A stretch of 64,000 nucleotides of DNA, taken from Psammoneis japonica. Taxonomy: Eukaryota. Both the position numbers and the translations under genes were made by a program. Shown piece after piece: positions 4,160 to 47,969 of the stretch. Positions within the stretch are counted from its first letter, which is position 1. Every line of letters begins with the position of its first letter. Location of the stretch: positions 62,001 through 126,000 of the forward strand of contig QPGO01000070.1 of assembly GCA_008632985.1 (NCBI GenBank). The letters run 5' to 3'. The notes under the pieces are model-generated. The model saw only the letters and a program-made list of their open reading frames with translations, ran no database searches and was not told the DNA's origin.

Positions 4160-4520
4160 TGAGTGGGACCTTGTGGTGTTGGACAGTGGTGTGGCAGAAC
4201 ACTTTTTTTGATCATGCAATGTGTGGTGCAAATGTTCACTTCTGCTTGTGCTTTTTTGCAAAAGTTGTTTTGCACACTCTGTTTTGCAAAGCCAAAGGAT
4301 TTCTGTTTTGGCTGTCCCGAGAACAAAACCAGGCTGGACATTTTCTTTGACACCTCAAGAAAACACCTGGGTGCACCACAAATGATTTGCTTCATGAGTT
4401 TGTTTGTGATCCCAAAATTGCCTCTTTTGTTTCTGTTGGCAATTGTTGATTTGTTCATCACCTGACAACTTTGCTGCAGAGCTTGAGTGCAGCACTCTGC
4501 AGGCCCAACATCACATGGCC
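4160..4520. mobile_element. Fully decayed copy of MITE family A
   Basis: Matches the interior and right end of the 21607-22005 copy (ctgttttgcaaagccaaagg; aaaattgcctctttt; ctctgcaggcccaacatcacatgg). Termini are eroded. Confidence 0.7.
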
Positions 4521-4874
4521 CTCATTCATTCTAAAAAAAAGACCAGTCTGGTGTCTGAGTCTCTTGCAAGTTTGTTGACCTTGATGTGTCAGACAATCTT
4601 GCAAAGAAACTGGTTGGAAGCCGGGCTGTGCCTCCATTGAGCGCTCAACCAACGACATTTATTGCGCCTCACACTGTCGTGGTTGTTTTTTTGGGGTGCT
4701 GAGCACAGGCCGTGCGGCCTCGAAATGCAGAATTTTTGAAGGTGATGGAAATCTAGAACGGTGATGATTTTCTTTTGAAGTGCTGATAGGTGCTACATAT
4801 TGTAGCTATGTTGCTATATCGACGCTGAGAAGTGGGGTCTACCAGATTCTGCACCTCTCTAGCTGCATATAGTG

Positions 4875-5937
4875 TTAGAGATCGAGAGCGAGAGCATCCA
4901 TGCTAGAGCATTCATTATATGTGTGATCCAGAAGCGGATCTGTTGCGCTTGTGTTTGGATTTGGACCCGTCTCAGTGTCTTTCTCGGTTGTTCGAACTTC
5001 AACGACCAGTTTCCACCGTTCCATGATGACTGTCAAGTCTACTTGTGGATGTGCCGCATGCACTTCTTCACAGACCTGTTTCACTCGTTCGGAGCAACTA
5101 GTCCGTTCGGCCTGGTGAAGAATGTGAAGAGATCGCAAAAGTACTATCGTATAAATCAGCACAGGGACATTGCATGACAACCAAATCCAAAAGTAGCGGT
5201 GACATTCCCGATTTGGATTTGGCACACATGGGAAGTAGGGAGATTCATAGATCGGAGTGACAGCCACATGGCTGAGCATGTTGCTTATGAACAATTTCAA
5301 GCAGAAAGCCCAAGTTTGTTGGCGCAGACTCTGAGAGCACACCATTGCTCCTTCAATATCTTGTAAAAAGCTCATCCAGGAGGTTTGACTCATTTTCAAG
5401 AAGGGAGGGACAAACTTGATTGCGCTCCACGGTAGGATTTTAACAATCGAAAACGACGGCGAGCCTTGACGAATTGAGAGATGGATCAACACGGAACCAT
5501 CACAATCACCTTCACTGGGCACAATATGTGCTGCTCGTCGTTGAAGAATGGTTTGAATGGCAACTACCAAAGCCAGTATCGCAAAATACCCCAACAGAAT
5601 CTGCCAAAAGACAGGGACGTCAAATATGGAGAAAAATGTCATCACTAGCGAAACGACAATAGCTCTTGTGCTGTTGAACCAAAACGTGAATTCCGGCATT
5701 CGACGGGGCTGCTCGTCGGTTGTTGACGCCGTCCTGGGATCATTGAGGGGACTCCAAAACCAAGCGCCTTGTGCCATCAACACAACTCCCAAAGCGTACG
5801 CAACAACGTAGAAGCCGCCATGAAGTACCCAAAAGACGCGTGCCACAAACATTCCAAGCAAAAGCAAGGAAAACATCCAACGCGCAGTCACATAATTGGC
5901 AGTCTTATCTTTGATGCATTGATGGCAACGGCTGACT
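4875..5937 (-). CDS. Rer1-like ER-retrieval receptor domain fused to an unassigned ~200-aa C-terminal domain; upstream exon not identified
   Basis: Rer1 hallmarks DK...VTARW, GFYVVAYALG, RRMPEFTFW, FSIFDVPVFWQIL. The frame stays open upstream of the GTG to a likely acceptor (ctcacacag) at ~5937. Confidence 0.75.
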
Positions 5938-6249
5938 GTGTGAGTAGGAAGAAAGAAATGAACATCAATTTTCTATCGTGAGATCTGTGTCGGTTATATT
6001 TTAAAACGTGCCTTCAAAAAGAGTAGCTTCAATTTCCGCATGCACCTGAGTCTTCAACACGTTTTGAATACATGGTTACAAACACTCGTTCCATTCCTGC
6101 TCTGCTCGTCAGTGTTTCCAGTTTCGAAGCGCAACAATCAAAGCAACATATGAAATACCGTGCCTGCAAGCCTGCAGTAAGATCAATATGCCATGTGCAC
6201 TGGTACAAAAATCACGTAGATATTCTACGTAGAAAAAATTATAAAAATT

Positions 6250-6657
6250 AGGGTTTGGGCCGATTTTTTCTCCTGCTTCTACCGTGCTTCTCTGCTCCAC
6301 CGACGCCTCAAGGAATCGTTTTCCCCTGAAACCATTGACACTTTACAAGATGACTTTTACATAAGTAACACGATTCTGTGCGTGAACACTTCAAAATTCC
6401 ATTTTCAGAAATTCGATCAACACTTCACCACGGTACCACCACGGTAAACATTTTCCAATGATGGAATTTTGCCGAACGGTGGACATCGTCGTGTTTGTCA
6501 TCAAAAAGTAAGTACGCAAAGTGTCAACCGTTATGACTGAAATCGATTCCTTGAGGTCGTGGCCTATTTTTCGCAAAGCACGGGAAAAGCACGACGAACA
6601 AGATATTCTACGCGAATTTTCTACGTGAGTTTTGTACCAGAAATCGGCCCAAACCCT
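6250..6657. mobile_element. MITE-like element with 17-bp perfect TIRs
   Basis: agggtttgggccgattt (6250-6266) and aaatcggcccaaaccct (6641-6657). The subterminal segment ctggtacaaaa.tcacgtaga also occurs inverted at ~6200-6220. Non-coding. Confidence 0.6.
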
Positions 6658-6769
6658 GTTTTTCGGGACTCATAACCCCTGCACATGGCTTATCAAGTCT
6701 GTACGTCCATCCGATAGCAAGCAACTTTTTCTATTCGTCGAACGCAACTCTTGCTTCTCTCGTCGTGTT

Positions 6770-9450
6770 ACACCGCGATAAATCCCATGGCATTCTGTTG
6801 CATGCCAACCTTGTTGCAGCTGTCCTGCTCTTAGAGCGTTTTCAATGGCTCTTTTATTCTACTCCTGTTGGTGAGCTCTTCGCTGTCAACGCGACACTCT
6901 GCAAAGCATTGTGTGGTCAGTGTCCCAGAGAATCATGTGCTGCTGGTGCTCTCAGCTCTGAGTTGCAGCCAACAAAAAGACTCTGTGCATCCAATGAAAT
7001 GCTCTTTAAAGTGTGACAACTTTGTCTTGGTGACATGTGTGCCCAATCTTGGCTCTGGGTTGCACCCAACAGAAGTGTTCAGTGGGTTGAACAGAAAAAC
7101 ACTTCACAAAGTGTTGTGTTGGTGTCTTTCAGGGAATCACGCATTTCTGCCAGAGAATCTCGTGCACGACCATGCAGCAGACAGCAGCCACTGCTTGAGC
7201 AACTCCCACACAGAGAAACCCAGCACCCCAGCTGTGTTGTGGCTGCATTTTTGAGGAGTGCCTGACTCTGATCATCATTGAATTTTTTCAGTCTGGTCGC
7301 GTCCGTCTCTCTGGGCCAGCTTTTCTTGGGAAACAGTTCTTGTTTCCACCAATTTGAAGCAAATGCTCTTCAGACTCCTGTGCTTCATGCTGGCATCTGT
7401 GTGGCAGAGCAAGTTCTTCACCTGGCAGGCAATTGTCATGGTTGCTTTCCTGTTTTTGTGATGAAAAAATGCCGCGCATCTCCCCTGTTGTGGAAAGGAG
7501 GCAGCTGCGGTCAACACGCAGACCTGGAGGGGGGGGGGGGCTTGCTGATCTGGAAAATGAAGGTTCACACATTTTGTTTTTTTAGGAGCCAATGGCTGGC
7601 AACTCTGCATTGAGACCCGGGTGCATCTCACCAAAAAATGTGTGCACTTGTGGGTCGCCATCAGCAGGTGGGGTCAGGTTGGGGCTGCCACACTTGAAGC
7701 TTCCACAGCGGATGGCACAAGCATGTCAAGCTTGTCAGCTTTGAAGGTGCACCCTTGTTGTGGCACCTGTTTTAGCTCTGCTGTTTGTTGGCTGTGGCAG
7801 CTGTCTGTCTTGTGGGTGTGCTTTTTGCAGCGCACAGATGTTGGCCAGCAAAAGTCCCGCGCTGGCTGACCCAAGAATTGCTTGTCTTTTTCAACTTTCT
7901 CTTTGAAGCTTTTTGCTGTTTCCCAATGAAAACAAACTTGTTTCATCTTTTGTGAGCCACACATGTTTCACAACTTGGTGGAGCACCTTTGCATGGCTGG
8001 TTGAGCCATGCTCCAGCTCAGGGGGTGTGCCAGGACGATGCCAGGTGCATGTGTGGGAGAGTTCTGCACGTGAGCTCCACAGCTCATGTGTGCACCAGAT
8101 GACAAGCACTTCTGTTTTTGATGTTAAAACAAACAACCATTTTTTTCAGTGCTGTCATGCCTCTTGACAGTCAGATTTTTTGAAAAGCTGCATCAGAGAA
8201 TGACACAAACACATGAAAAAATGCCAAAAGTTGCTGAGTGCATTGCCCAACAAATGCACTGCAAACAAGAGCAAAACAAGTCAGAAGTTGCCAAAACATG
8301 CACTCTGAATTTTGCGCTGAGACTTCAAAAAATGTTGGTGCCACAGCTCTGCCCCCTGCTGCAAAGCCCTGCCTGGAGCCAGAGTTCATGGAGTTTTGGG
8401 CAGGTTTGGTGCTGCTTTGTGTGTGCTTGTGGCTGAAACCCCTTCCATCTTAACCTCATCTCCTTTGTTCTCTCAGCTTGTCAGTTGAACAATTGGCTGG
8501 CAAGGTGCAAGCCTGTGTTCAAGGGCAGCACAGGATTGTGGGGCACACCATCCTGGAGAGCAAGGATGTTGTGCAAGGCACAAGCAAACAGGAACATCCA
8601 GTCACTTGGGATGGACACCATTTGACAACAATGACGCATGCTCTGGTTGGCTCTCACAACTGCTTTTCCCACATCTAAAAGATGGGTGCACCGGGAGTGT
8701 GGGGCCAGTTTCCCCTGTCAGAGGAGTTGCCATGGTCTTGATGCTGTTGTGGCTCTTGAACAACTGATTTTTGCCCAAAGCAAATTGGAGCAAATTCCAA
8801 CATTTGTTCAAAAGCCAATTTTGTGCCAGCATTGCTTGGGCTGTCCCACAAGCATGCTGTCTGGCAAGTTCATCATCTTGACATTGTCAGCATGTGTGCT
8901 GGGATGGGACTGGGCTGGCAACAATCCAGAACAAATGGCAGAGATCCAGTTGCAAGCAACTGGCAGCTGCAGGAGGAAAAGACAGCAAGGGCTGCCCAAG
9001 AGAGTGGTCAGAATGCAGAATTGTCTGCCCCACCAGGAAGCTGGCTGTTGCCCACCACTGCTGCATCTGCAGATGCTGAGCTCCATTCATGCAATGAAGA
9101 TGGCATCAAGTGGCATCAAGAATCTAGAGCAACAACAGTGCAAATGAGGAGAATGCAACAAACAACCACACTGCTTGTAATCAGAATGAGCCAGAGTTGG
9201 TTGGCCATCAGTTGGCAAGGATTCAATCCTCGAGGACAATGGCTTCCTTGGGCCATGCAGTTAAAAACATGGATTCCAGAGACTGCATGGACTGTCTCTT
9301 TCTCGAGAATGCTCTGATTTTTTTAGAGCACAAGCGACGTGCTCCCATGGCCAAATGAGGATGACATCAAGGAGCTCTGCCCAAAGCAATGAGGGGTGTG
9401 GGCAAAACTTTGAGGGGGGCAACGAAGTGCTGAGATTTGGTCAACACACA
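6770..9450. other. TpA/CpG-depleted block 2
   Basis: Same dinucleotide signature; all ORFs here are essentially Tyr-free and Cys/His/Gln-rich. Confidence 0.9.
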
Positions 9451-9570
9451 TGTTATTCTATTCATTGCGTTTGATCAAGCTACAAGAAAAAGTGTGCTGA
9501 GGGAATCAGCTGAACGGGAGACGGGCAATTCTTATTTTGAAGACTGAGTTTACGGAATAGAATTATCTTC

Positions 9571-12181
9571 CTATGCACCCCCAGCACAACCCGAGAGTTC
9601 CGGGCATTGGTTTTGACATACATCCGAAATCTTTTTTCCAGTAATTCGTTCCTTCAAATGACAGAATTTGTTGGGATTTTTGGCGATTCGAGAACATGGA
9701 ACTAACCTAATTGCATCAGGTGTTTGGCCCACACCTGTGTACTCTACGATAGTTGATGGAGAGTTGTCGCAGGTTGATGGTGTACTTTTTGATAAAGCTT
9801 TCGCCTTCTTAGCCGCCTTATCACCTCCCATGGGTGTTGCCTTTTTAGTGGGAGGTGGTGTTGCTTTTTGAGTGGGAGGTGGTGTAGGAGCTGGTGCCGC
9901 CTCTTTTTCACTACCAGCGCCACAGAATTTGGCGCATTGATTTGGACACACATCCAAGATCTTCTTGCCTGTGATTCGTTCCTTCAAATTACAGAATTTG
10001 TTAGGATTCTTGGCGATTCGAGCACATGGAACTAATCTGATTTCATGAGGGTCTTGGCCCACTCCAGTGTACTCGACCATAGTTGCTGGAGAATTATCGC
10101 AGCCCGAAGATAGACTTTTTGCCTTGATATTATTTGGCTTTTCACCTTCTCCAAGAAAGTCGACCTTGACAGTCATCGTGCTGCTCACTTCACCTACTTC
10201 AATGCTAATTCCGGTCCATTTTTCTACTCCTGTGGAGTACGCGTTGGTGTTTGGGTAGGGAGATTTCCCACCACCGTTCTTCGTGACTCCGTCGGGGCCG
10301 ATGCGATAAGCAGTTGCCGAACTTTTGCTGTGTGTGTGCGATGGATCGTACCTAAAGAGATCAGATTCGTCACCCCAGTTTTCATTCTTCTCGAGGTGAT
10401 ACATACCATCGCCTTGCAACAGCGCTAAACGGTAATGATGGTATGGGTACTTGGTGTCTTGCGGATGCCCTTGAGACTTGTGACTGATGTGCGACATCGT
10501 TCCTGTTTCATCCACGTGCCAAATTGCGATGCCACCCCTGTACATCTGAATGCCACTAGGATGATTGAGCTCAGCATCACATCCGCATGCATATCTGTGT
10601 TCGATGAGCAAGAATTCGCCCTTGGGCATGTTGTGTGTGATTTTGTACACCTTGTCGAACGAGCAAGACGGACCAACCTTGAGGACTGTGGACTTGGAAA
10701 CTGTTTCCACGTCAACCCAACGGAGTGCCATCTTGCCCCACGCACTAATAAGTGGCGGCATCAACTGGGTTCCTCCCCATCCCCATGCTTGTCCTAAAAC
10801 AAAAAGATAAAGTGATAAATACAGTTCATTGTGTCAGAAACAAGTTCTTGAGGAGAGCTTGAAGACTCGATAGACGGACTCACCCATCATATCGAAAGTC
10901 CCGACACCTTTTGAATCTGTGTCATATAGATCAGGCAAGCCCAGGAAATGACTACATTCAAGCACATCAAATGCTAATGAGAGAACCGGGGCTCGATAGG
11001 TGATACTGTGATGCCAATCGCGATACTTAACACTGAAACACTTACCTACACTCGTGCGTTATCACGCCTAAATCGTTCAAGCATAAACAGCTGATGAGAG
11101 AACCGATCTTGTCTAAACATCAGTGATTCCAATCACGACATTTCACTTTGAAACACTTACCAATGCGAGCTATATCCCATCGCTTTCCTTTCCCACCAGG
11201 AGCACAGTTACCCCAGAGTCCAGAAGCAACATAGTATCGGTCAATGGTTATTCCATCTTTGCTTTTGAAGAACTTGCCGTTGTGTGCGTGGGACCATATC
11301 CTATGCTCAGGGTCTTTCTTTGGATCCTCACAATCTACGCCGCCAAACTCCGATCCTGCGCCAGAGTGCATAATAACAACGGCATCAAAATACTTGTTCC
11401 CATCCCTATCAAACTTTCGCAAATCAATGTCGCGACTTGTGTCGAGATAGTTCATGGCTTCTCTCCATGTATCGAGAGTGCCTGGTCGTGCCAAACCCCT
11501 TCGATCACCGACGGTTTGCGCTTCCGTGCGTTTCACTGGTATCCACGGAGTTACAATGGTTTTCAGTTTGAACCTTCCATAGGAATTTTGCAGAAAGATA
11601 TCAGCAACCGAACCGGTAGGAGCGATGTTGCTTTTGCCCGTAGTCCCGCCAACCTTGTTAAACAACGTATCGTAATCGGTGGTTGTTGGCAAATCACGAG
11701 ACTTGTGATCAGAGAACCGCACCATCACGGCAAGGTTAATCAGCTCGCACGGATTGGTCTTTGAACTTTGAAAGTTACATAGTTTGCTTCCCGGGACCTC
11801 CAATAGCCCCCGACGTTCGATAGTATGATCAAATTCAGAGTATGGAGACTTGGTTCTCTCCATGTCATTTTTGCTGTCGTCCGTCAGATGAGGTTGTAAA
11901 CCAAGCTTTCTGGGATTCGATTTCCCAACTCGCGCCCCGCTGGACACAAGAGCGCCATCTTCTTTTCGAGCATACACGTACCATCCTCGCTCATCTCGAA
12001 TGACAGTGTATCCTTTTGGATCCTCTGTCCAGCTGTAGAACTCATCCCCGAGCAGCTGTAGAGGAGGGGTTTTGGATCCGTCGGGTTGCTCATATTTAGC
12101 AGGTTTCGGATTTGCGGAGATGGCATAGCAGCCACTGGCAAGAGCCGCTGCGAGAAAAAGCCGCAAGTAGATTCCTCTCAT
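9571..12181 (-). CDS. Secreted M6-family (immune inhibitor A-like) zinc metalloprotease; 4 exons: 12181-11161, 11067-11046, 10951-10884, 10793-9571
   Basis: Signal peptide; M6 propeptide motif (QPDG...GDEF); TGSVADIFLQNSYG; HSGAGSE; IWSH. Splicing at GT-AG sites rebuilds IGVITHECSHFLGLPDLYD...GTFDMMG (HExxH plus Met-turn). Two Cys-rich ~55-aa C-terminal repeats. Confidence 0.92.
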
Positions 12182-17329: not shown

Positions 17330-17666
17330 CGTCGACCTTTATTCTCGTGATTTCATTGAACACCAGGCGGGGACCTCATACAGCCTCTAGAGTCGATGTA
17401 CAGCCGCCGCCATGGGCATGCTTTCGGCGTTTTGGTTTATGTTGTGCTCACGTTGAAAGTGGCGCGGGAATAATCGGGAATAAGATGCGTGCAGCTAGCA
17501 TGTGTCACGCAGTCGTGCAGCAGCTATTTTTTTTAAGGGTGGTCGGTTGCTACTTTTTTTAGCTCGAATTCGGCCGAATAGCTCGTGTTTTGCATGATTT
17601 TTCCTGAATTTCACCGTGCTTCACCGTGGTGAAAACAACAAGCCATAAGTCTGTGACGGAGGTGGT

Positions 17667-17741: not shown

Positions 17742-18099
17742 CAAACTACGTTTTTGAGAAATATCGATGATTGTCATCATCGTCGTGCTTCGGTCGCGGT
17801 GGTGATGGTTCTCGTTTTCGTGCGCGATCGGGTGTGACTAGGGCCTATGAATAATTCTTGTATTCAAAAATAAACACTAAAAAAACCTTATTCAAATGCA
17901 ACGGTAATTTTAGGATAAACGCGGGGATGACCCCCCTTAATAGGTCTACTACCCTGTAGCACAGCCAGGACGCTCGATCAGGAAGTCCGTCCATGCATCC
18001 CTGTCCACCCCCCCCCTCCCCCCGACATCCGCTCATTGCCCGGTGACAGACATTCTCTCTCGATCGTTGCCCAAGAGCGACAGTCATAAACTCGGTTGT

Positions 18100-21000
18100 T
18101 TGCAGCAGCAACAACTGCATGCTTGGCTGAATGGCAGCATCTCATTGTCTTCATGAACTGAAGTGATCATTCAGAGCCATGATCTTTTTGTTGTGTTCTT
18201 TGTTGTCGGCTGGGTGCAGCACATGCTGTGCAACACACAGCACGAGGAGGGCTGAGCCAACCGGAGTTTGTCATTTTTGCACTTGACAACAGCAAGCTGA
18301 GCAATGTTGTCAACTGATGTGACAGCAGCTTGAACAGAGGGAGGAGTTTTTTCTGCTGTCCCACAAAAAAGCTGGCGCACCTTTTCATCATTTTCGCACG
18401 TGCACTTTCTCCAGCAAAGCTGGCTGCTTTTTTCGATTGTTTTGCCACCAGCAGCAGATGCCTTTGAACTTCAGGTTGTTGAGGTGGGATGGTTGCTCTG
18501 CTTGCTTTGTGTCAGCAGCAGCAGCTGCTGCACTGCATCGCTGCAAAGATCACAGGCAGAGCAGCAGCGCAACAAGTGAGCTCAGCTTCTTGTGAGAGCT
18601 CTGAAAGCCCGCAAGAGAGTGCTGTGTGGCCCAAAATGGCACTGAGAGAACAGAGTTGGAAGGCACAAAAAAAGAGCTCCAGGGAGGATTGTTGAATGAA
18701 AGAATGGCCCCATTGCCCCAACAACTCTTGGGCTGCAAAGGCAGCTGGGTTTGTGCTTCTTTCTCTGGCTCTGCAGTCAAAGTTAGAGAGAGGCTCAGTT
18801 TGAGAAGCTAAAAGCTTGACAACAGGGGAAAACAAAGGGAGTGTGTCATTGGCAATGAGCAAGTTTTCTTGATCACAGCTGCTGGCTTGCTTCTCTGGCA
18901 GCACAACAAGAAGAGAAAGCATTGCTCAGGGTGCTCCTCCTGCTGCAAATGACTGTGCAAGTCTGGAGTTGAAATGCATTGAAAAGCTCAGATTTGGTGG
19001 GCTCTGGTTTTGTCAATCATTTGTGCTTGTGCATCATTTGGCTGTTTGTGTTTGAGGGGTTGAGAGGGGGGGGGGGGGCAGGAAACAACTGCATCTTTGC
19101 GAGCTCTGCATGCTTGCATGCTTCAAAATGTGAGTGCACAAAACTTTGTCAAATTTGAAAAATTGAAGGCAGGCACTCTCTCAACCATTCTTGGTGTGTT
19201 TGCAATTGCTTGCAACTGTGCATGTGAAATGCGTGAAGGGCAAAAAATGGCATGCTCTTGTTTGCAAAAGTTGCCCATGAGAGGCGAAAATCTACGAAGC
19301 AGTTGGTGGGTGTTGGAAACATTTTTTGCACATGGGGGACAAGGGTTCTGCCAGGTCTCTGATGTGGCTTGTGAAAGTCATTTTGTGGCCCCTTGTGCAC
19401 AACAAGATTGCTTGCCTGGCCACTCATTTGCCCACTTTCCTGATGGCCGCTCAGCTCTTGTTGAGAGCTCTGTGGCAGACACACCAGCAGCGCTTCTGCA
19501 CGTGACACCAGCGCGCTGCTGGTCTTCCCACTGGCAACACTTCACTGAGATTGGGTGGCTGTTGTGACACAGTTGCTCTCAGTGAGTTGTGCCTCCAGAA
19601 CTGCTGTGCACCTCTCATTTCAACAAAAATGTCCAAATGGCCAGCAGCACCTTGAGTCTGACCTCATTGCTGAATGTCCCCCCCCCCAGCTTGCAAGAGA
19701 AAGCGCAACAAGAAATGCCAAACAAGTGTGTCAACTGCCAAGTTCTTCTCCCTTGGCATCACCTTCCACAGACACAGCACACAAATGACATCATGAAAAG
19801 GCACAATCCCCAAAAATGACAACTCACGTTGTCATCCCCTCAAGTGCAACAGTGTCAACAGATGATCGCGCGAGAGGGACATGCCAGCATTGTGACTCCA
19901 AATGAGTCATCCCCCAACTGTCAGTCGCGAAGCTCAAGAATCCCCAAAGTTTTGGTGGCGGATTTCTTCATTCTCAACTTCCGCGTGAATTTGCGCAAAA
20001 TTGTGGTTGGCGATGTTCTTTGTCAAAAAGAATGGTGTTGAAGCTTGTTTTTTGTTTTTCTCAGAGAAGCACTCATTCAAACAGCGAGGACAGGACTGGC
20101 ACAACACACTGTGATGCTTTTTCTGGGTTGCCAGATGTCCTGTGTTGAGTTGTGCTCCTCGAGCGGTGCAAATTTTTGATCAGAGTCGATCGGATCAATT
20201 TTTCCACATTGACAGTTTTGTTCACTGAGCATTTTAGAGTCACAATTTTTGCTCTCATTTTTTTGTTCCTTTGCCAAGGAACTTGCTTCAATTGTTTTTG
20301 TGAGCTGCCTGGTCCATCATTGTGGAGTTCAGCTCCTCTTTCACAGAGGTGTTTCTGCTGCTGTGGTCACGCGACCGTGTGTGATTGCTGTCAGAGCATT
20401 GTATTTTTGGGTCTCTTTCAGAGCCACCCTTGCACTCTTTTGCTGGTTTGTTTTTAGAATGGCTTCAATCCATGACACAGGTGTTCTTTTTTCAAAGATG
20501 GCACCTTTTGTTCACTTTGGATTGTTCAGGTGCCATGCAGGAGACCATTTTTGGAACCAAACTTGGAGCCATTTTGGTTTTGAAGCTGACCTTGCCATCA
20601 GAGTCTGATTTGATGTGCGCTCTTGTCACAGGCATCATCAACAACCTCCAGACGACTCAAAACTCAATCAGCTCTCATCACAGGCACGTTCCAGCAATTC
20701 AACGTTTCGGACAGTCGACTGATGCCGCCATCCTTGCGGTGCGAGACATGGCTGACAGCTCAGTGCTTGGTTTCCCATTGGATTCAACTTAGAATTGATC
20801 GGAGGGTCATGTGGACACTCATCAATGACCTCTTGGGTCCAGCAGAGGCTTTCTTGCTGACTGCCAAGCTGCTCTGGTTTCTTCAGATCATCTCGAAAAT
20901 GACAACTCTGATTCTGAAGTGCATTTCCTCAGAAGACATGAGTTGAGAGACACTTGGAGTGCTTTTCAGCAATTCCTTCTTGCTCTTTGGACTTGAGGCT

Positions 21001-22400
21001 CATCGATTTGGTCTCTAAAAACTCTGCAACATCAACAGTCTCTCCTTGCATGGCAGGTGCATTTCTCGGATCTTGTCGACTCGAAACTTGACATTCCATC
21101 CAACTGTGACTTGGTGTAGATTTTTTGACAATGCAGCATGCTTGTGGAGTCTTTGATCCTGAGGTGCTTGGAGTGGGTTGTGTTGGAACAAACCCCCTTG
21201 ACAGACAGACAAAAAACAGTGTTCCATCTTGAGGCATTGCTCGGATTGCGGTTCTCTTCCACTCGGAAATCGACTCCAGCAGAACTGACACGATTTGTTC
21301 CTGTTTGTGGAAGAATTTGCAAAGGCACATTAGTTGAAATTTTCATTTTCTGTGTTTTTGCCTTCTGTGGTGTGCACACACAATGCACTGTGCTTGAAGT
21401 GTGAGCATGAACAAAAGCAGAACAAAGCACGAAAAGTGGAAATTGTGAGTGTAAATTTTGCTCTGTAATTTTTGGATTCTCCGAACAAGTTCTCAATGGC
21501 CCAAAGCTTTTGTGCTGCCGGAGGCATGTGAATGGCAGCAAACTTTTTTTCAGGATTGCCTCACAGACCCCAAGACCCACATGTTGGTGGAAAGCTCTCG
21601 ACGAGCAACGCGTTCCAGCTCTAGAGGTGGGACCTCGCACTGCTGCACTGTGACATCAACAGTTTTTTGGATCGCGTCGCATGTCGCGCACGCACATTTC
21701 TGTGTGTTGCATTCTACGAAATTGTTTCATGCTCCCTGTTTTGCGAAGCCAAAGGCTTTCTATTTTCAACATTCATGAGAATGAAAACACGCTGGGCACA
21801 TTCTTCAATGTCTGAAGAACACACCCGGGCAAACTGTTGATCATGTGCTCCAAGCATGCAGGAGGAGATGCGTTCATAAAATTGCCTCTTTTTCTGTTGG
21901 CGATCATGTGAATTTTCATTGCAGTGTAAATTTACTACAGAGCTCGCACGCAGAATTCTGCGGGCCCAATGTCACATGGAGTCCCACCCAGGACTGGAAC
22001 CCATCGAGCTGAACAAGGTCAAATGCATGTTGCATCGGTCGGAGTGAGCGGAAAGCAAGTGTTTGTCATTGAAAATTTGGCATTTATTTAAGAAAAAACA
22101 ATGGTCACATTTGCCTTTTTCCAATTGATTTTTGTGTTTGTGTTCAGTCATTGCTCGCATCATGAATTTGACATTTAATCCGGAGTTCCGAAATTTTGTT
22201 CAGGATTGCATGCCGCACAAATTGCTTGTGGGACACCTTGTTTCTATGCTTTGCTCTTACTCTGCAGCTCTTACAACTGAAGATGTCGAAAAAAGGCTTT
22301 CGTCAGTCGCTGCAACTGGGTGTGTTTTAGTGACTGACGAAAGCCGATTTTCGACAAGCATTTTTGGTGTCGAGATTTTTCAACGGCAAAAACAACTTCG
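18100..22400. other. TpA/CpG-depleted block 3 (decayed repeats)
   Basis: Same signature; CpG is partly retained from ~19830 onward. Confidence 0.88.
21607..22005. mobile_element. MITE family A, partially mutated copy, 4-bp TSD gagc
   Basis: Ends (a)acgcgttccag...ggtgggac / gtcccacccaggactggaacccatc match 46637-47026; gagc at 21603-21606 and 22006-22009. Confidence 0.85.
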
Positions 22401-37113: not shown

Positions 37114-38199
37114 CAAAAAGCAAACCTTAAATGAAAAAATATTCAAAAGCTGACCTCCATCGACAGATCTCAGAACAGTCCAGTGATTTCGTCTCAGTTT
37201 ACGAAACTACAGCTGCGGGTGGTGGGTGGTGACCGTCAATCACAATGTCAATGACATGAGTATTGATGTTCCTCACAAACCAGCTGCTGGCCATTGCCCC
37301 CCCTTACTAGAGAGACAGAAATGTAGCAGATATGAGCCATGCCAATCTGCTGCCAATTTCAACAATATCTTAAGAGTGTGTAGTGTGTAACCAGTGGGTG
37401 CTCTTCGTGGAATGTGAAGTAACTCTTCCCGGAGTTGGTAGCTATACAACACTTGAAAACTATAGAGTAGAGTGCGAGGGACTCATTCCAGAGACAAGCT
37501 CTGTAGGGCCAACTGCCGCATATGCCTATTCGTGCGTCAACTTTCCTCTAGAGTAGAACTTTGTATTACTTGGGCAATATTATAGTATGAGTCAGTCGGT
37601 ACAGGAATCCTGCCAATAAAAAGGGGGTTTGAAAATTTCCAGCATTGCTGCGGAGCGCAGACCCACAGCTGCATACTTGCTAAACCATGCCATTGCCATT
37701 CAGAGCATGCCTTTACCACCGATATGAATTCTTCGCCCGTGTTGGCAGAGCAGGACTGTGAGCAGCTCTTCTGGCTTTCTCTTTCTTGAGTGTACATTTG
37801 TGGACTACCCACTCTCATGATGACTTACATTTCGTGAATCGCAATCCACACTGCGACAATGGTGATCCTTGTCAACCACGGCGGCGGTTGTCCGCAGCTG
37901 GACCATCGGCAGCTCGTGGGTTTGCAATGTTTTCAGCATCTTCATCCATCGTCCGAGCCTCGATTTCGCCGGCCAGGGAATCTTCACCAGAACTCGACTC
38001 ACTGATGGGAACAGTTGAGCGCTTCCTGATTGAGTCGTGAATAGCGAATCATGACCGCGTCAATGTTGTCACCACCTATTTGAAAGGCATTCAATCGGCG
38101 AGCACGGTCGTTGTCGTGGTCTCCAACACCATCCAAGTCGAAAAGATAATCGACAGTGACACAGGAGAACCAAAAAGGTTTCCTTCGTTCGACTCTGCA

Positions 38200-39450
38200 C
38201 TTCGGCCCTGGCTGCTGTTGCTGCTGGCGTGACCTTGCTCCTTGCTTTGATCGCTGGTCCTCGTCTTCCCAATTCAAAGCCCCAAAGTGAACGTGCTTCG
38301 TGACAACAAATGACAGCGGCCTTTGGATCAGAAACTCCGTTTGGCGTTTGCGTTGTCTTGCCATTGTTTTGGGCTGACCGTGTCCCATGACACCGTGTGA
38401 TTCTCCTCTCTTGAGTCATCATGACTTCACGATTGCATCTGCAAGCAGCAGGCATCAGCAATTGCCTCCAATGATGTCATTGTTGGAGAACACCAGCTTC
38501 TTTTGCTGTCACAATCATTTGCAGCACAGACAAAACTTCGTGTCAGAAACACATGGTCTCAAATGCACCTTAGAACCATGCCTCCACATCACATTTTTCT
38601 CTGCCATGTGACAACAGCTCCTGGCCACACATGGGGGTTGTGGCAGGCTTGGTTGTTGTCAAGAGTGAAGAGAGCGCAACAATTTTGTGTTGCAAGCTGG
38701 AGCTGCTGAAACTCATCTTGTGGTGGAGGGCCGGTCAACCAAGTGACCAAGACCACAACAAAACACCACCAAAATGTGCCATGCACTTGTGGGCACAGCC
38801 CACATGTTGTGCACATCATCATCGCACCAGATGCCAGCAGAGGCCAAGGGTCGGCAACAAAAAACAACAGTGGAAAGTCAAGGCAGATTTTCTCTGTTTG
38901 CAGCAAAATGATGGCTGATTTGACAATTCTGGGATGGCACAGATCAGCCAATCAAGTCAAACCATGAGATCTAAAAAAGCCAAAAACACAGACAGGAGAG
39001 TGCAAAAACAGGAGCACACCACCACAAAATGGGAGAAAAATGGCGTTTTCTCAGCACACTCTGCTGCTGACATGTGCCTCAGGTTGCTGAAACTCTGACC
39101 TCACCCCATGCTGCTGATCATCTGTCAAGAACAACAAGGAGGGAACTCATGGCTGGCCTCATCATCTCTTGTCTGTCTGCACCACTCTGTCCTGCTTCAT
39201 GATGCTGCTGGTGTCCAAAAACCCTTTCTCCCCGGCAGCCTCTCCAGTTGTGCGTGGCACCACACCTCTCCATGTCATCATGGCTGCAAAGAGGGAAAGC
39301 TCACATGTGTCTCTGCTTGCCTTTTGTGGTGAGCTTGATTTTGCATGTGAAGAGAGCACTCGGAGTGCAGAGGGGAGGGGGGGCGTTGTGAAGGGCTTTG
39401 GAGCGTTGTTCGCCCCAACAAAAACTAACTCTTTCTCTCAGACATGAAGT
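38200..39450. other. TpA/CpG-depleted block 5
   Basis: Same signature, with CpG retained at the left margin. Confidence 0.85.
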
Positions 39451-39645
39451 GACCGCCTGAAAACGATAGCAAGAAATTTATTCTCTTATCCATTCATTAG
39501 TATAGGTATTTGAAATTATCCTTAATGTATGAAGTAAAATTTATCATGCCACGCTGGCACTGCTTTTTGGCATTGCATGTGTGTGAAATTCAAAAATCGA
39601 CCCGCCATCAAAACAACACAACAGCAAAACAAACAGCGTCTAACC

Positions 39646-40511
39646 ATGTTGATCTCCAGAGTATCACGAAAGCTCAAGAAAAAGTCCAAAAGTAGGGACC
39701 TGAGGGATGTTACAAACCGTCATGATCAAGAACCGACAAGAAGCAATGTGCAAACAAAGCAAGCATTGACGACTACTCCACCAAGTCAATCACCTCCGAA
39801 CGTCCTATTATAACTCCTGAAACGAAGAAGAAGATTATAACTCCAGAAGCAACCAAGACGCCGCTCAAAACTCCAATCAAACAGTCTCCAATCAAGCAAC
39901 AGTCTCCTCCCAAGACACCGACCATTTCCTTGGAACAAGCACGCGAGGAACTCGAGCGGGTGTTGAAAGATGCCTATAAGGGTATTGAGCACGCCCAAAA
40001 GGAAGAATCCGTTGCCGCGTCCGAACTCGAACGCATTTCCAAGGAGGAAGTACAAGCCCGCAGTATTTACGAGACTGCCGATCCCACCACCATGGAACGC
40101 TTTGTCCGCTCCTCTCTCAAGCAGTATTGGCGCTTGGCTCAAAAACGCGAAAAGGCGGCCCATCGGACGTTACAAGCCTCCAAGCGTGCCGTGGATGAAG
40201 CCAAGGATGTCTTTGAGTGGACACTGGTGGGGGCGTTGGAACAAGTGCAGCGTGCGAAATTGCAACAACAACAAAAAGATGAAAACGAAAATCAAGACGA
40301 TAACGACGACGATGCATCGACACTCTCGACCGAGGAGGAATCACGCACGCCGTCTCCCAGCTACCTTGCCAACTATGGAGGAGGAGAAGAGGAAGAACGC
40401 CCGAGCCGCATGTTTGGCATGTTTGATGCCAAAGAGTATCTTCAGAAAATGGAAATTGAAGCCTCTGAAGTGGAGAGTGGAGACGAAATGACGCCGTATG
40501 AGCGATACTAA
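39646..40511 (+). CDS. Short coiled-coil paralogue of the 33256 gene lacking WD40; apparent 1-nt frameshift at ~39800
   Basis: MLISRVSRKLKKK...SPP continues as RPIITPE...LEQAREEL if one base is added in ccgaacgt. Shares EEVQARSIYE/EEYQARVIYD and RMFGMFDAKEY/RMFGTFSAKEY with the upstream gene. Confidence 0.7.
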
Positions 40512-41138
40512 TGGTATATCAGGGAAACGTCTGTACTGTAGTGCTGTAGTTTTCGGGTCCACGGGGGGAGTCGAAAAGCAGAACGAATTCAGCCAAGGCG
40601 TCTTTTGAAATCGGAGAGGGATTCATGACTGTTTCATCTCAAGATAGATCGAGTAGTAACCTACTTATTTAGATCATGTGTATGTTTCAAATCACTTCCG
40701 ACATACTTAAAGTCTTGTACAAGATTTAGGATGCGCCAAAAAGTAGAGGCGAGAACTCAATATCTACTTCTTAATTAGCACAACAAGATTGACGTACAAT
40801 ACCGTAAGAAAGTAGAAGAATTGTTATGCCTGCGCATAGAAAGAATCACCGTAAGCTTGTTCTAGAGGGGAAAAAAGCATCACGGGGGTTGCAAGAGTGT
40901 GCTAGCAACGTGTAACTAGCGCTGTTTATGCTCTCACTCGAGACTGCGACAGGTAAGTATATTCTCAAACACCTCTCTGTTTTCGTTCGTTTGGTGCATT
41001 TAATAAATGGTCGTCATTGGCTTAAACAACACAAGACATGCAGCAACGTGTACAACTAAGTTTTAGCTCTCGAGACTTTATACAGGCATATTCGTCCAAA
41101 CGGCCAGTCCAAAGTAGTCTCTCTCTCTCGACTTCGTT

Positions 41139-42674
41139 TTAGAGTCCATAAACATGGTCATCATCACTACTCGTATTCCATAGCTTGATGGTTTCATCCA
41201 TGCTGGCAGAACAAAATCCATCTTGGGCTGAAGCTACAGAAACGACATTGGCCTCGTGATGTCCCTCCAATTCTTGCGACACATCCGTCCACAAATTCCA
41301 CAATCTCAGCGATGATCCGTGTGCAATGACAACCATGCTGCTACTTTTCGCTCCCACTAGAGCAACCGAGGTTGGTACATCTTGTTGTTGTTGCTTGAGT
41401 GTTCGAATGGTTTTTCCAGATGCGACATCCCACAACCGAACCGTGCCATCACGAGAGCACGAGACAAAGCGCTCGGCATCCAAAACAACAAGACTGTGAA
41501 TGGCGTCCGTGTGGCCCTTGAATTTCTTGATGCACTTGCCCGTCATCAAATTGTAAAGACGAATCACCTTGTCACTGCCAGCTGCCAAAACACGATCTTG
41601 GTCGTCCAGAGTGGCAACGGTATAAAGTTCGGTATGATGTTGTCCCCGGATGGTGCGAACGCACGTGTTGTTCGATAGCGACCATATCTTGAGGGTCTTG
41701 TCGATACTGGCGGAACAAAAGTGATTTTCGTCAAGACAAGCCAAAGATGTGACTTGATCTTGGTGACCAATAAACGTAAAAAGACAATCATCCGTCGCTA
41801 TATTCCATAGCTTGCACGTGCCATCGTTGGATGCCGTAACGAATAATGATTGATCTTGATTTTTCTCTAGAATGAGTATAGCATTGACTTTGGCCGAATG
41901 TCCATTGTTGTAGGTACGGACACAGCCACCCGCCTCGACGCTCCAACACTGTACCGTCCCATCCATGGATCCAGAAATGATCAAGTCGTTGTTGAGACAT
42001 GCCACGGCACTGGCGGCCACATCGTCTTCAAAGGTTTCTTTCACAGAAACGCTTGCCAAGCACTCGGTCGCCACGGAAAGAGCATCATCATCATCATTAT
42101 CATCTTGGAGCTGCTGTAGGTATTGACGAGATTGTTGTACTTGTTGTGTAGCATTTTTTAATTCATAATCACACACGGCCTTTTGTTCTCGTGCTTGATC
42201 CAACTCATCCAGAGCTTGTTGGAGAGACGTTTCAAACAAGTCCCGTTCCTGCTCGAGTTCGAGTTTGGCTTGTTTCTGAGCTGCCGACGCGGCGTTTTCC
42301 TTGGCCGTGGCGGTTGCGTGGTACTTTGCGGCAATAAAGTTACTCTCCTTGAGATACAAACACGCCTCGTGTTCGTCTTGTGTGGCTTGATTTAATATTA
42401 GGGTAGAGGCACTCAGAACTTGTTTCGATCGATCGAGCTGTGTTTGACGTTCTATGTAGGTTTGTAGTAGAAATTCGCGAGCGTCCTTGATTTCGTGTGC
42501 GGCGGCTTGGGCGTTGCACTTGGCGGTATGCTTGACACCACACGCCAGAGAGTGATAATCCTTGGCAACTTGAGCTGCAAGAATTGCAGTCGAGTCGTCA
42601 CTGTTTCTCGTTAGACTCGGCGGGAGAACAAAACTCGGCTTGTTCTTACGTGACTTTAGAGACAATTGCTTCAT
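41139..42674 (-). CDS. Coiled-coil plus WD40 repeat protein, 511 aa
   Basis: Clear WD repeats (GHQDQVTSL...SASIDKTLKIWS; GHTDAIHSL...SCSRDGTVRLWD); N-terminal helical region similar to the two neighbours. Confidence 0.9.
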   Translation of the reverse strand: MKQLSLKSRKNKPSFVLPPSLTRNSDDSTAILAAQVAKDYHSLACGVKHTAKCNAQAAAHEIKDAREFLLQTYIERQTQLDRSKQVLSASTLILNQATQDEHEACLYLKESNFIAAKYHATATAKENAASAAQKQAKLELEQERDLFETSLQQALDELDQAREQKAVCDYELKNATQQVQQSRQYLQQLQDDNDDDDALSVATECLASVSVKETFEDDVAASAVACLNNDLIISGSMDGTVQCWSVEAGGCVRTYNNGHSAKVNAILILEKNQDQSLFVTASNDGTCKLWNIATDDCLFTFIGHQDQVTSLACLDENHFCSASIDKTLKIWSLSNNTCVRTIRGQHHTELYTVATLDDQDRVLAAGSDKVIRLYNLMTGKCIKKFKGHTDAIHSLVVLDAERFVSCSRDGTVRLWDVASGKTIRTLKQQQQDVPTSVALVGAKSSSMVVIAHGSSLRLWNLWTDVSQELEGHHEANVVSVASAQDGFCSASMDETIKLWNTSSDDDHVYGL

Positions 42675-43002
42675 AGTAGCAACGGTAGCAAGCAGAGAGT
42701 ATAGGTATGATACAGTAAGTTGTTGTCAATGGCATCAGCAACAACAACAACAACAATGATGACAACACCGTTGCCGTTGCGTATATCTTTTTCGAAAAAT
42801 GATGGTAACCCGGACACTGGCCGGCGAAAGATTTGAATTTGAACATTGATTTATTCGCGGTTATTTACAAGTTATTTAAATGACGTTATTACCGTTAATC
42901 TAACGGAGGGTCAAAGCGCACAACCACCGAAAATCGATAGAGGAAAAAGCAACAAACTCTCTTTGCTTTTTTGCCACAACGAACAACGAAACGCCAGCAA
43001 CC

Positions 43003-44162
43003 ATGACGAACAAGAAGCGAAGCAATTCCAATGAACTAAACGATGCTTCTCCCACAAAGAGACTCACCATGGCCGAGGAGGATGCATTGGAACGGAGTCA
43101 GTCCACGAAAGGACGTCGACGATCGAGTCGGCAATTGAATGTATGTAGAATTCAACTCAGAACGCACCGCTGCTGCTTTTTCGTGTAAATCTCATGCACT
43201 TTTTTCTTTTAATCAACTTTTGCAGCGCATTCCAACCGGTGGTATGAGACGATTGCACGAATTATTTGGAAGGACGACTCTCTGTATGACAGTGACGTGA
43301 AAACGACGATGAAGACTCTTGTTGCAGTAGTGATGCTGATGATACTTCCAACAATGCTGTTGTTTTGAATTTTGGAAAACGCTCTCGCTGGAAACGCATT
43401 CACGATTCGCCTCACATTTATGTCATGGACGACTTTTTGAATGAATCGGAAATTCAATACTGCCAAGAGCGCATCCTCAAAACCAAGTTCCAGACATCTG
43501 TCGTGGACAAGTTTGATGATTCTCTGGAAGTAGATCAAGAACAACGAACGTCGACCTTTGTGCATTTTGGTAAAATGCAGCATTCCAAAATCGCCGCCAT
43601 GGAAACGCGAGTTGCCGATTTGTTGGGATTTACCGTCCAACAGCTGGAACCCTTGCAGATTGTACGATACAAGGCGGGACAATTCTTTGGAACGCATCAC
43701 GACATGGGAGTCTTGTACGAGGATGGGAGTGTCGAACTGCCGACCAAGTCGTCGTGTACACCACCACGACGGCTCGTGACGGTTTTTTGTTATCTCAATA
43801 CCGTGGCGAATGGTGGATGCACGTACTTTCCAACACTCAATTTACGAGTACAACCGAAACGAGCACGGGCTGTGCTCTTTTGTAACATTGACAAGTTTGG
43901 CATGCCGGATCCACGAACCGTTCATGCGGGAGAACCCGTTGTTTGGACTGAACCTGATTCGATAGAGACGGATGATTCAACAGCAGCAGAGAACAATTCT
44001 ACAGAGACTGATTCATCAGAGAATGAAGCGCGAAAGGACAGCGAAAAGAAAAGGAAGGATGCCAAGAAGAAGCCTTCGAAACAACGAGATGACGACGAAT
44101 GCAAATCTCTTTTGAATCCCAATGTCAAGTACGGAATCAACATTTGGGCCTGTGAAGACTAA
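43003..44162 (+). CDS. Prolyl 4-hydroxylase-like 2OG-Fe(II) dioxygenase; 5' structure uncertain (intron 43141-43225, then apparent frameshifts)
   Basis: PHIYVMDDFLNESE, RTST, EPLQIVRY, HHD (HxD), RLVTVFCYLN, GGCTYFP, VHAGEPV, KYGINIW. Confidence 0.85.
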
Positions 44163-44503
44163 CAGTCTCTCTCTCTAGAGAGAATAAATGATGGGGGCAA
44201 TCGATGAGTCGGGGCGAGTTGGGTAAGTACCTAGAGAGCTAGAGCATAATCTCCTGCAGACGTTGGGTGTTATGACGAGTACTAATCTTTACTACCTCCC
44301 AATGTTGATTCTACGATATTATTATGTATAACTCGATAGATGTTTCGGGGGCGTTGTCGTGGAAGACCCGCATTGTGAGTTTGGGAGCATATCTCGCCAC
44401 GCGATTGTCCGTTAATCACAAGAAAACCTGAAGCATGGCTGGTGCGCATTTCATGCCTCATTTTGGTACACTGCAGCATATCACAACCGCAATTGCTTAT
44501 ACG

Positions 44504-45328
44504 ATGATAATGATTGACGTTGTGATTGTCCTTGGCCTGGTTGCGAGAGGAGCCCAAGGGTTCATTAGGCCTCTTCTTCCTCACGTTTTGTCGCCTTTGA
44601 AGGCCGTCCAACAAAAGGTTGCAGTGCAGCAAAACCTCGAGCTATATTCATCCTTGTCGGGTAATCAAGATGACGACAAGATGGATAAGTTTATTAATGT
44701 GATGCGAAATACCCTTGAGGGAGGAGTGAATGAAAAAGTTGGGTGCATTCGTGAGCATACGAAAGCGCTGATTGGTGCCACAATCGAATCCTTCGAGACG
44801 GCATATGACTGGTGGATTGATAACGGCACACATGCCACTGGCTACCATGGCTTTGTTTACGGCTGTTGTAGTGATGGCTTCTTGAATCCGGAAGATGACG
44901 ATCTCGAGCCTTATTGGATTCCCAATGACGACTTGCCTTTTCGTCTTTTTTGTGGTGGCGAACGATTTCTAGAAATTGAATGGAGGGATTTCGGCAGACT
45001 GTTTCTATCGAATGAGGCTATGGTACCCAAAGAGGAAATCAAGGACACAAAGATTGACAAAGTTGAAACAAGTCAAACACAACATTTGGAATGGACTCGC
45101 TGGAATCAAGTCGAGGAAATGGACACTTTGATTGGCAGGGAGATTCGGGCGGCTTATCTGGGATGCTGTGCAAATTACTTTTCCACCTCTAGTGTGAGTC
45201 TGAGCGCTTGGAACATCCTAATTTTTGATCTTGGTGATTGCTGGCTCGAGGTTTCCTGTGGCCTGGATGAGAACTATTGCGAAGTACACAACGAGAAACC
45301 CAACTTTCACATGATCAAGTGTGCTTGA
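44504..45328 (+). CDS. Hypothetical protein with possible bipartite (signal plus transit) presequence
   Basis: Intronless ORF in normal DNA; hydrophobic N-terminus ending GAQG|FIRP, resembling the diatom ASAFAP cleavage motif. Confidence 0.65.
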   Translation: MIMIDVVIVLGLVARGAQGFIRPLLPHVLSPLKAVQQKVAVQQNLELYSSLSGNQDDDKMDKFINVMRNTLEGGVNEKVGCIREHTKALIGATIESFETAYDWWIDNGTHATGYHGFVYGCCSDGFLNPEDDDLEPYWIPNDDLPFRLFCGGERFLEIEWRDFGRLFLSNEAMVPKEEIKDTKIDKVETSQTQHLEWTRWNQVEEMDTLIGREIRAAYLGCCANYFSTSSVSLSAWNILIFDLGDCWLEVSCGLDENYCEVHNEKPNFHMIKCA

Positions 45329-45449
45329 CGCAGGCAGACGACAAACAGTGATGCACGGCGGATGAAGTCCATGAAGCTTGATCGTGACTACATTGCTGCA
45401 AACAGTTGCATTTTGCTCGGCGCAGCGATGACAAATAAACCCAAGTGCA

Positions 45450-47397
45450 TTCATCCGATTTGTCTCCTCCAATGTCTTCCGAAAGACGCGCTCTAGCCCT
45501 CTCCACCCTTGCTCCTTGCTGCACCTTTTCTCTCATCCAGGCGCCGTGCAACACGCAACCTCTAGAGAGAGTGTCATGCCAGCTCGCCTTGAGCTTGCCA
45601 TCTGCACCAGCACTGGGGATGCATTCACAATGACACAAGACTGCATGCTTTTGCATTGCCATTGGTCATGCATGCAGCAAAAGCATGAGCTCGGTGGTGC
45701 AGTGTGATGTGTCCCCTCAATTTTAGGATCCGACCCTTGGCACCCACTCATTTCTGTGAGACCACGTCAAAACAATGCAATGATGGTGCACTGTGCTGAA
45801 GCCCTGATGCATCCTTGGCTTTGTGAGGTGGGATCAGGCAGCAGATCTGTGATCATTGCAACAGGCAGGATCATCCTTGGGCTTGGACATGGATTGATGG
45901 CTTCCTGTGCTTTCTCATGGTTGCTGGACTGTTGGTGATCAGTGATTTGATTGTCTGCTGGGTCAAGCCACTGCCAGTGGTTTGTGGCATCTCTGCACAC
46001 AAGAGGAGGCAAGGGGGCACCTGGGGCAAAAGAAGAGGTCTCCACCTCTTCCTTTTGCCAAGAGTGAACAGTCCAGACTCTCCCAGCTGCGCTGCCAATC
46101 ATGCCCCAGACAACTGGAACAAGAATGTGGGTGGCTGTAAAGTGGGAAGAAAGGGTGCCAACAAAGTGACCAGAGGTGCCTGGGCACAAAAAAGTGGTTC
46201 AGACAAGGCATGCAGCATGCAGCAGGTTTTGTCAAAGCAACTGCAAAACTCAAGTGACCATGTTGTGCTCACAGGGGTGCCCTCTTTTGACTCTGTGCAT
46301 CAAGTCTGTCTGAAAAATGCCAATGTCACAAGCATCCCCAAGGCTCTGCCTCATGTTGTTTCACTCAGAACAGAACAGAATTAGAAGGGGTGCACTTTTC
46401 AGAAACTGCAATGGCAAAATGTGACACACCACAATTGAAAGCTGCTGAGCAAGATGACCCTCTGTGAGAAGCAAGTCAAGAGTGTCACAAATCCCCAAAA
46501 GCACACTGTGAATTTTTTGCCAAAAAGCATGTTGAGTGGAAGCAAGTGTGCAAAAATCTCAGACTCCTTTGGTGGCACAAGCAATGTGAAAGATGTGCCA
46601 ATGTCACAGAGCCAGCAGCCAACCACATGCACACAAGACGCGTTCCAGGTCTAGGTGGGACCTCGCACTACTGAACTGTGACATCGATAGTTTTTTGAGT
46701 CTCGTCGTATGTCGCGCACGTAGATTTCTACGTGATTTTTTCGATATTTTGTGTCATTTTACGGTACACTTATTGAGCGATCCGTCCAACAACTTTTGAC
46801 ATTTTTTGTTACAGCGCGATTCTACAATGTCTTAAGAATCGCGTAGGGCAGGCGAAGTTGCAAAAACGTCGAGTGGTAAGAGGCATAATTGTACCACAAA
46901 CTTGGCCGTTTATTTGATGTTGAAGATAAATATATCCATTAATTAAATTCTCGTACTACGGAGCTCGCACGTAGAATTCTACGGGCCCAATGTCACAAGG
47001 AGTCCCACCTAGGGCTGGAACGCGTCACAAGAGGATGGCCAGGCCAGCCAACAATTTTCAAGCTGCGAGAGCAAAGCCCAACAGCAGCAATCTTCAGCAA
47101 GCATGGGCAAAAGGGCTGGGATGAAACAATCTAGTCACAAGATGAGGCTCATGTGCAATTGTGTTGTGCCAGCTTGTGCACTGCAACCAAAGCCATTGGC
47201 AGAAAGCGAAAACAAGTCAGCACACCAAGCAGCATCTTTGCTGTGACAGTGTCACAAGCAAATCAAGACCCCTCTTGAAAAATGTGTCAACCCCACAGCG
47301 TTTGCTGTGGTGAGATGCATCAAAGTGCAGTGTGCATTTTTGATGCAAAATTGGAGCGGTCAGTTGAGTGTTGAGTCGAGCTGAGGCAGCGAGTGTG
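45450..47397. other. TpA/CpG-depleted block 6, interrupted by a pristine MITE
   Basis: Signature present on both sides of 46637-47026. Confidence 0.88.
46637..47026. mobile_element. MITE family A, pristine 390-bp copy, ~25-bp TIRs, 4-bp TSD acaa
   Basis: gacgcgttccaggtctaggtgggac ... gtcccacctagggctggaacgcgtc; acaa at 46633-46636 and 47027-47030; rich in TpA and CpG. Confidence 0.92.
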
Positions 47398-47965: not shown

Positions 47966-47969
47966 TATA

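Follow-up and report, generated by a model that had tools for sequence, protein, structure and literature searches.

Within a 64,000-nt window of the Psammoneis japonica genome (contig QPGO01000070.1, positions 62,001 to 126,000), copies of one family of miniature inverted-repeat transposable elements (MITEs) range from intact to almost devoid of the dinucleotides TA and CG. The window is the whole stretch analysed, and all coordinates are positions in it. Comparing the copies with one another, with duplicated gene pieces and with the surrounding DNA, we show that the change is directional, obeys a sequence rule, removes TA before CG and is regional in character. The differences among copies are probably explained by two directional mutation processes acting in place on silent blocks of this diatom genome. 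An earlier note, a reading of the sequence alone, had presented three of the copies as successive stages of a single conversion with a built-in clock.

The 31-nt segment quoted in that note is present as given at starts 46967, 21946 and 4485, in the copies named here A, B and C, and its second pair of strings at 46703 (A) and 21677 (B). Alignment shows A, B and C to be homologous across their whole length, and a window-wide search added two further copies, A' and D. Throughout, rho is the figure used for the TA and CG content of blocks, bins and copies, and TA sites are classed as RTAY (susceptible on both strands), one-strand TAY, or YTAR (e.g. CTAG, TTAA). The copies are as follows.

46638-47025, plus strand: MITE copy A, 388 nt, unconverted (TA rho 0.92, CG rho 1.55)
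47398-47755, minus strand: MITE copy A', unconverted (TA rho 0.84, CG rho 1.67), 95% like A
21608-22004, plus strand: MITE copy B, TA mostly gone (rho 0.26, 0 RTAY), CG mostly retained (rho 0.80)
4148-4518, plus strand: MITE copy C, fully converted (0 TA, 1 CG), subfamily of B
54271-54655, plus strand: MITE copy D, fully converted (1 TA, 0 CG), subfamily of A

The ends of A and B are terminal inverted repeats, starting ACGCGTTCCAG and finishing GGTGGGAC. Copy A lies between 6-nt target duplications (CACAAG, at 46632-46637 and 47026-31), as does B (CGAGCA / CGAGCT, 6 nt); D has both terminal repeats with no recognisable target duplication around it, the left terminal repeat of A' is truncated and C is without the right one. 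As a sample of the family we used the contigs of one public run (X1) that are at least 80% like intact copy A, a filter even-handed for the two dinucleotides, with 28 TA and 29 CG sites in A; runs X2 and X3 were left out, having too few pieces on the element (1 and 17). In X1, 2886 contig pieces align to A at that threshold, 400 of them at ≥99% likeness. The element is called a MITE because of its inverted ends, its target duplications and its very high abundance, and its 388 nt are non-coding. Conserved cores of the element had no match among metagenome contigs and viral contigs. By their middle parts the copies form two subfamilies, A/A'/D and B/C, and a 25-nt insertion common to B and C sets their subfamily apart from A, so that B is not simply a half-converted A.

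Loss of TA before loss of CG is supported at the scale of blocks, bins and the family sample. The window is a mosaic, in which a two-state model fed TA alone called 10 TA-poor blocks (27.9 kb in total) with TA rho of 0.02-0.12 and TG plus CA nearly doubled; 36 kb of the window served as normal DNA for comparison. TA is erased in 10/10 blocks, and their CG rho is graded (0.10, 0.13, 0.13, 0.18, 0.26, 0.27, 0.37, 0.39, 0.53 and 0.69). Both dinucleotides are lost in 80 of the 250-nt bins; TA is lost in another 28, of which 18 show intermediate CG and 10 retain CG. A single bin has lost CG while keeping TA, and none combines lost CG with intermediate TA, which makes 28 TA-first bins versus 1 CG-first bin (binomial P 1e-7). 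The X1 variant table lists 40 of 67 variant places, with kind totals of 21 A>G, 17 T>C, 10 C>T and 7 G>A. Among the places listed, 19 of the 28 TA sites are changed versus at least 3 of the 29 CG sites (Fisher P 9e-6), with a mean share, counting unlisted places as zero, of 0.33 for TA and 0.036 for CG. The earlier note had proposed that TpA is lost before CpG, and these counts bear it out.

The direction of change can be read from pairs of converted and unconverted relatives. Between gene 50110-51058 and its copy at 61434, 29/37 TA and 40/47 CG are now TG or CA, and the copy of the same gene at 58396 gives 29/37 and 32/42; a piece of the Rer1 gene and its copy at 3038 give 19/24 and 24/27. 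Within the MITE family, 21/24 TA and 21/26 CG have become TG or CA from A to D, and 6/7 TA and 14/15 CG from B to C. The product at one and the same ancestral site varies between copies, being either TG or CA. Strand clustering of the two products was looked for in five pairs and none was found (P 0.06-0.93), so that long one-strand tracts are not in evidence at the present saturated stage.

The TA change obeys a 5'-TAY-3' rule. The 98 TA remaining in TA-poor blocks comprise 65 YTAR, 31 one-strand and 2 RTAY sites, as against 228, 754 and 456 in the 36 kb of normal DNA. Among the X1 changes listed, all 14 T>C and all 13 A>G fall within TA, and 22 of these 27, with contexts judged by eye, match A to G at 5'-TAY-3' on either strand; the 5 non-TAY exceptions have shares of 0.07-0.18. 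RTAY is missing from B, from the flanks of B and, bar one site, from a second element at 56188-57147, where one-strand sites and most CG persist. These data show an order of site classes: RTAY is lost first, one-strand TAY next and then CpG, with YTAR largely spared. Surviving CG in the TA-poor blocks is itself context-dependent, GCGC being best kept (52 vs 96 in normal DNA, ratio 0.54) and ACGT least (13 vs 117, ratio 0.11).

Differences among the copies at these target sites are beyond chance. Between A' and A, transitions are found at 5 of 56 TA positions, 0 of 54 CG positions and 7 of 264 others. Relative to A, and confined for B, C and D to reliably aligned ends, transitions have changed 8/11 TA and 5/17 CG in B (other positions changed, 11/118), and changed sites amount to 9/10 TA and 13/15 CG in C (others 32/94) and 11/11 TA and 16/17 CG in D (others 31/113). 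Ranked by transversions at other sites, the series runs from A' (6/209, with ~4-6/28 TA and 0/27 CG converted) through B (8/118) and C (12/94) to D (16/113). Transversions, TA loss and CG loss thus rise together, which agrees with the cumulative conversion with age advanced in the earlier note as a trend only, made of four points from two subfamilies.

What the copies share with their surroundings gives this series another meaning. The following stretches are those next to which the copies have to be read.

21600-22399, no strand assigned: fringe of TA-poor block 17960-21875, covering B and 400 nt of its right flank, with no RTAY and CG near normal
47027-47397, no strand assigned: spacer between A and A', converted (1 TA, 6 CG)
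47756-48597, no strand assigned: block X, 842 nt, non-coding, unconverted (TA rho 1.10, CG rho 1.38), adjoining A'

Counted per 200 nt from 21600, RTAY sites number 0, 0, 0 and 0 and CG 13, 6, 7 and 9; from 22400, RTAY returns with 5 and 10. The RTAY-free stretch (20800-22399) therefore extends 400 nt past the right end of B, and these 400 nt of non-element DNA hold no RTAY versus ~5 expected, with a CG rho of 0.96; some one-strand TAY sites are retained across the fringe. B and its flank have this fringe state in common, which argues that a copy reports on its neighbourhood, and the flanks of C and of D likewise match the state of their own copy. The earlier note had allowed that the variant at 21607 might be a subfamily that transposed in that state. 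Since this state continues into the DNA flanking B, outside the element, B did not transpose already converted.

Copy A is differently placed: the 400 nt to its left contain 1 TA and 0 CG, so A landed in previously converted DNA. A, A' and block X all stand unconverted inside 4.7 kb of TA-poor territory, with no gene block closer than 1.3 kb and with immediate flanks holding 0-1 TA per 400 nt; that they are intact there indicates that recency of arrival matters. Block X, richer in TA and CG than the genes, sits within this TA-poor territory and looks like another recent insertion into it.

The footprints of the two losses differ. Over all borders, CG rho inside the TA border is 0.49 at 0-200 nt, ~0.3 up to 800 nt and 0.08-0.20 beyond, whereas TA is flat over the same distances (2.6-5.6 per kb); CG loss thus trails up to ~800 nt inside the TA border. 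Nor do the two losses keep a fixed ratio. Residual TAY-type sites increase with the CG kept (0.44, 1.09, 2.29 and 4.60 per kb, where normal DNA has 33.9; Spearman 0.37, P 6e-5), so that TAY is already 86% lost in bins with CG intact and declines slowly afterwards. A single two-rate exponential model was rejected, TAY being 86% gone while CG is intact and then falling about as slowly as CG. YTAR does not serve as an additional slow clock either, since its density is flat at 2.1-2.9 per kb over CG classes. The single conversion with a built-in clock described in the earlier note is not upheld, given that copy state equals that of the surroundings, that TAY and CG have no fixed loss ratio and that CG lags at borders. 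The differing footprints and the variable ratio argue instead for two processes, and leave the clock uncalibrated; a clock read from the copy series is plausible, if uncalibrated at present.

In the explanation that we favour, the first and faster process would change the A of 5'-TAY-3' to G on either strand, giving TG or CA; it would take RTAY first, mostly pass over YTAR, have come near completion and stop at a sharp outer border. The second, slower process would turn CG into TG or CA, be graded between blocks and trail up to ~800 nt inside the border of the first. A, A' and block X would be recent insertions into converted DNA, still untouched; B would sit in a TA-lost, CG-kept fringe, and C and D in old, fully converted DNA. 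The series would then gauge how long a stretch has been exposed to the processes rather than just how old a copy is, on a time axis that we infer. As to chemistry, the first process may be enzymatic deamination of adenine in DNA, by analogy with the proposal made for TpA hypermutation in Bigelowiella natans (Mettrop et al., bioRxiv 10.64898/2026.01.13.699255), and the second may be deamination of methylated cytosine.

The alternative that fares best, although we give it a rather low probability, is purely spatial: the TAY process would reach a few hundred bases beyond CpG methylation, and TA-lost, CG-kept DNA would be a stable unmethylated fringe with no time in it. The CG gradient just described suits it, CG-kept, TA-lost DNA being mostly at block edges (CG rho 0.49 at 0-200 nt, 0.08-0.20 beyond 800), and so do the position of B in such a fringe and several fringe blocks free of any CG loss (rho 0.84-1.08). 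Against it, the intact state of A, A' and block X deep within TA-poor territory implies that recency of arrival matters, and the 3.4-kb interior of block 17960-21875 has a CG rho of 0.33 versus 0.04-0.14 in other cores. Moreover, transitions in B affect 5 of 17 CG dinucleotides versus 3 of 118 other positions, which indicates CG that is decaying and not stable.

Less probable still is a single deaminase acting on A in TAY and on C in CG, and more efficient on TAY. Both changes have the same end products and occupy the same blocks, and the preprint of Mettrop et al. (10.64898/2026.01.13.699255) cites ADAT2 as editing both A and C in DNA. The different footprints of TAY and CG and their inconstant loss ratio argue the other way; furthermore, the B. 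natans process comes without a CpG part in the main text of the same preprint, in which "CpG" occurs 0 times, and the CpG methylation reported for diatom transposons (PMC9998398) already accounts for CG decay.

Inheritance within a subfamily, with the state of B a fixed variant transposed when already converted, appears very improbable: B and C do form their own subfamily, and some TA changes in X1 are high on one strand only (e.g. 46886 T>C at 0.68), but the signature extends into the non-element flank of B and at many TA sites some contigs have T>C and others A>G. An artefact in which modified bases of silent DNA are misread, TA and CG still being present in the cell, was raised because the signature is motif-specific and regional, and we give it hardly any credence, as nothing was found in its favour, converted copies also bear many other substitutions and indels, intermediate and unconverted copies stand side by side in the same territory, and independently built X1 contigs contain 0.73 of the sampled words of 43000-49000, though perhaps from the same data.

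Several points weigh against the favoured explanation. The divergence series consists of four copies in two subfamilies, and divergence from A mixes copy age with subfamily history; in B taken alone, the contrast between 8/11 TA and 5/17 CG is borderline (P 0.051). At block fringes time and position are confounded, and YTAR density, flat over CG classes (2.1-2.9 per kb), does not track CG. In one bin, 37251-37500, CG is low and TA normal; of the 10 bins counted as TA-lost and CG-kept, two are gene bins in which TA is borderline. For X1, up to 12 more C>T or G>A places lie outside those listed, which makes the CG figure a minimum; shares add up the word depths of short contig pieces and do not count copies; some high shares are perhaps subfamily differences, A departing from the majority at 46688, 46699, 46855 and 46857; and the run is possibly the same data as the source of the assembly. 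Finally, Pfam gave no match for the 93 reading frames of ≥100 aa in TA-poor blocks, so that, apart from the MITEs and the duplicated gene pieces, the content of the blocks is not established as transposon DNA.

Beyond the MITE copies, three other stretches stand out in the mosaic.

48598-49600, no strand assigned: TA-lost, CG-kept block (TA rho 0.16, CG rho 0.84)
56188-57147, no strand assigned: second element, with 49-nt inverted ends (92% complementary), intermediate (TA rho 0.28, CG rho 0.64)
57106-63997, no strand assigned: largest fully converted block (TA rho 0.05, CG rho 0.13)

The TA sites of the second element are 1 RTAY, 12 one-strand and 9 YTAR. The largest block contains two tandem units of ~3 kb (58396-61407 and 61434-63928), both fully converted and each holding a converted copy of gene 50110-51058; the Ser/Thr/Pro-rich frame 50233-50994, itself in normal DNA (49638-51058), is copied in both. 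The Rer1 gene region is likewise duplicated in part, with a converted copy at 3038-3829 that is 64% identical to 4824-5587 and lies 1 kb from the intact gene. A 198-nt tandem duplication (9594-9791 and 9924-10121, 81% identical) falls within an unannotated 420-aa frame on the minus strand.

Gene blocks, encoding Rer1, a family-3 G protein-coupled receptor, an SF1 helicase and WD40 proteins, have a TA rho of 0.5-0.6 and a CG rho of about 1. No TA gradient exists on the gene side of block borders, and the three TA classes occur there in the same proportions as in unconverted elements, so the lower TA of genes is not due to the TAY process. In TA-poor blocks TAA and TAG stops are erased, leaving long overlapping open frames on both strands; the frame at 48587-49495 has a translation without tyrosine that looks like non-protein. 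Together with the absence of Pfam matches, such frames imply that gene finders would be misled in these blocks. Scans with Rfam and for tRNAs gave no RNA genes in the window.

Directional mutation of repeated DNA has well-known precedents. In repeat-induced point mutation (RIP), which operates in Neurospora and other ascomycetes, C to T changes at CpA make TpA, ruin repeated DNA in blocks and can spill over into adjacent DNA. The Psammoneis pattern resembles it in its directional, dinucleotide-specific transitions within blocks of repeated or silent DNA, but runs in the opposite direction, TpA being destroyed (A to G), and leaves one copy of each duplicated gene unconverted; it is not RIP. The CpG decay of methylated repeats serves as a fast clock beside non-CpG divergence, e.g. 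in primate Alu elements. Here too a fast-mutating dinucleotide class in repeat copies can be set against a slower background; unlike in Alu, the faster class (TAY) runs ahead of CpG, and the state is regional and not per copy, so that copy age and block age are mixed.

The CG changes have the signature of methylation-type CpG decay, with 21-40 of 26-47 reference CG per pair turned into TG or CA. CpG methylation of transposons has been reported for the diatoms studied, and a RID-related DNMT4 for many diatoms (PMC9998398).

The nearest counterpart of the TA change is B. natans, in which TpA hypermutation of integrated giant-virus and virophage DNA was measured in mutation-accumulation lines (Mettrop et al., 10.64898/2026.01.13.699255). 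As that preprint describes, transitions are confined to TpA and give TpG or CpA (in X1, 27 of the 27 listed T>C and A>G changes are in TA), they are limited regionally to silent or foreign DNA (here 10 blocks are depleted and neighbouring genes spared), and long-term TpA depletion is accompanied by enrichment of TpG and CpA. There are also differences. B. natans belongs to a separate lineage, and the main text of the preprint mentions neither CpG, nor diatoms, nor a trinucleotide rule, although its supplements may hold context tables; its hypermutated regions keep TpA at 3.3% of dinucleotides, whereas TAY depletion here is near total. The targets also differ, consisting here of MITEs, duplicated gene pieces and intergenic blocks, with a slower CpG loss that follows. 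A viral origin finds no support in the present blocks, whose recognisable content is MITEs and host gene pieces, none of the 93 frames matching Pfam.

A search of full-text literature found neither a report of mutation directed at TpA in diatoms nor one on whether such mutation precedes or follows CpG loss. The only printed precedent for TpA hypermutation that we found is the 2026 preprint, which concerns an unrelated alga and, in its main text, TpA only. Relative to it, the present findings add a diatom, the TAY rule, MITEs as targets and an order of loss that includes CpG.

An abundant MITE offers many replicate probes of one process and makes a compositional oddity measurable: relative rates could be estimated from copies, the silencing of blocks could be dated and candidate enzymes could be tested against an exact signature. 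Any such clock must be read together with the flanks, since the state of a copy mirrors its neighbourhood. Speculatively, a diatom genome defence might open with TAY editing: a DNA adenine deaminase would quickly hit new or newly silenced DNA and remove most TAY sites (86% in bins with CG still kept) ahead of any CG loss, and methylation-driven CG decay would follow. If so, each silent stretch would be a two-hand clock, with TAY as the fast hand and CpG as the slow one, and thousands of MITE copies, serving as replicate probes, would date the silencing of each stretch.

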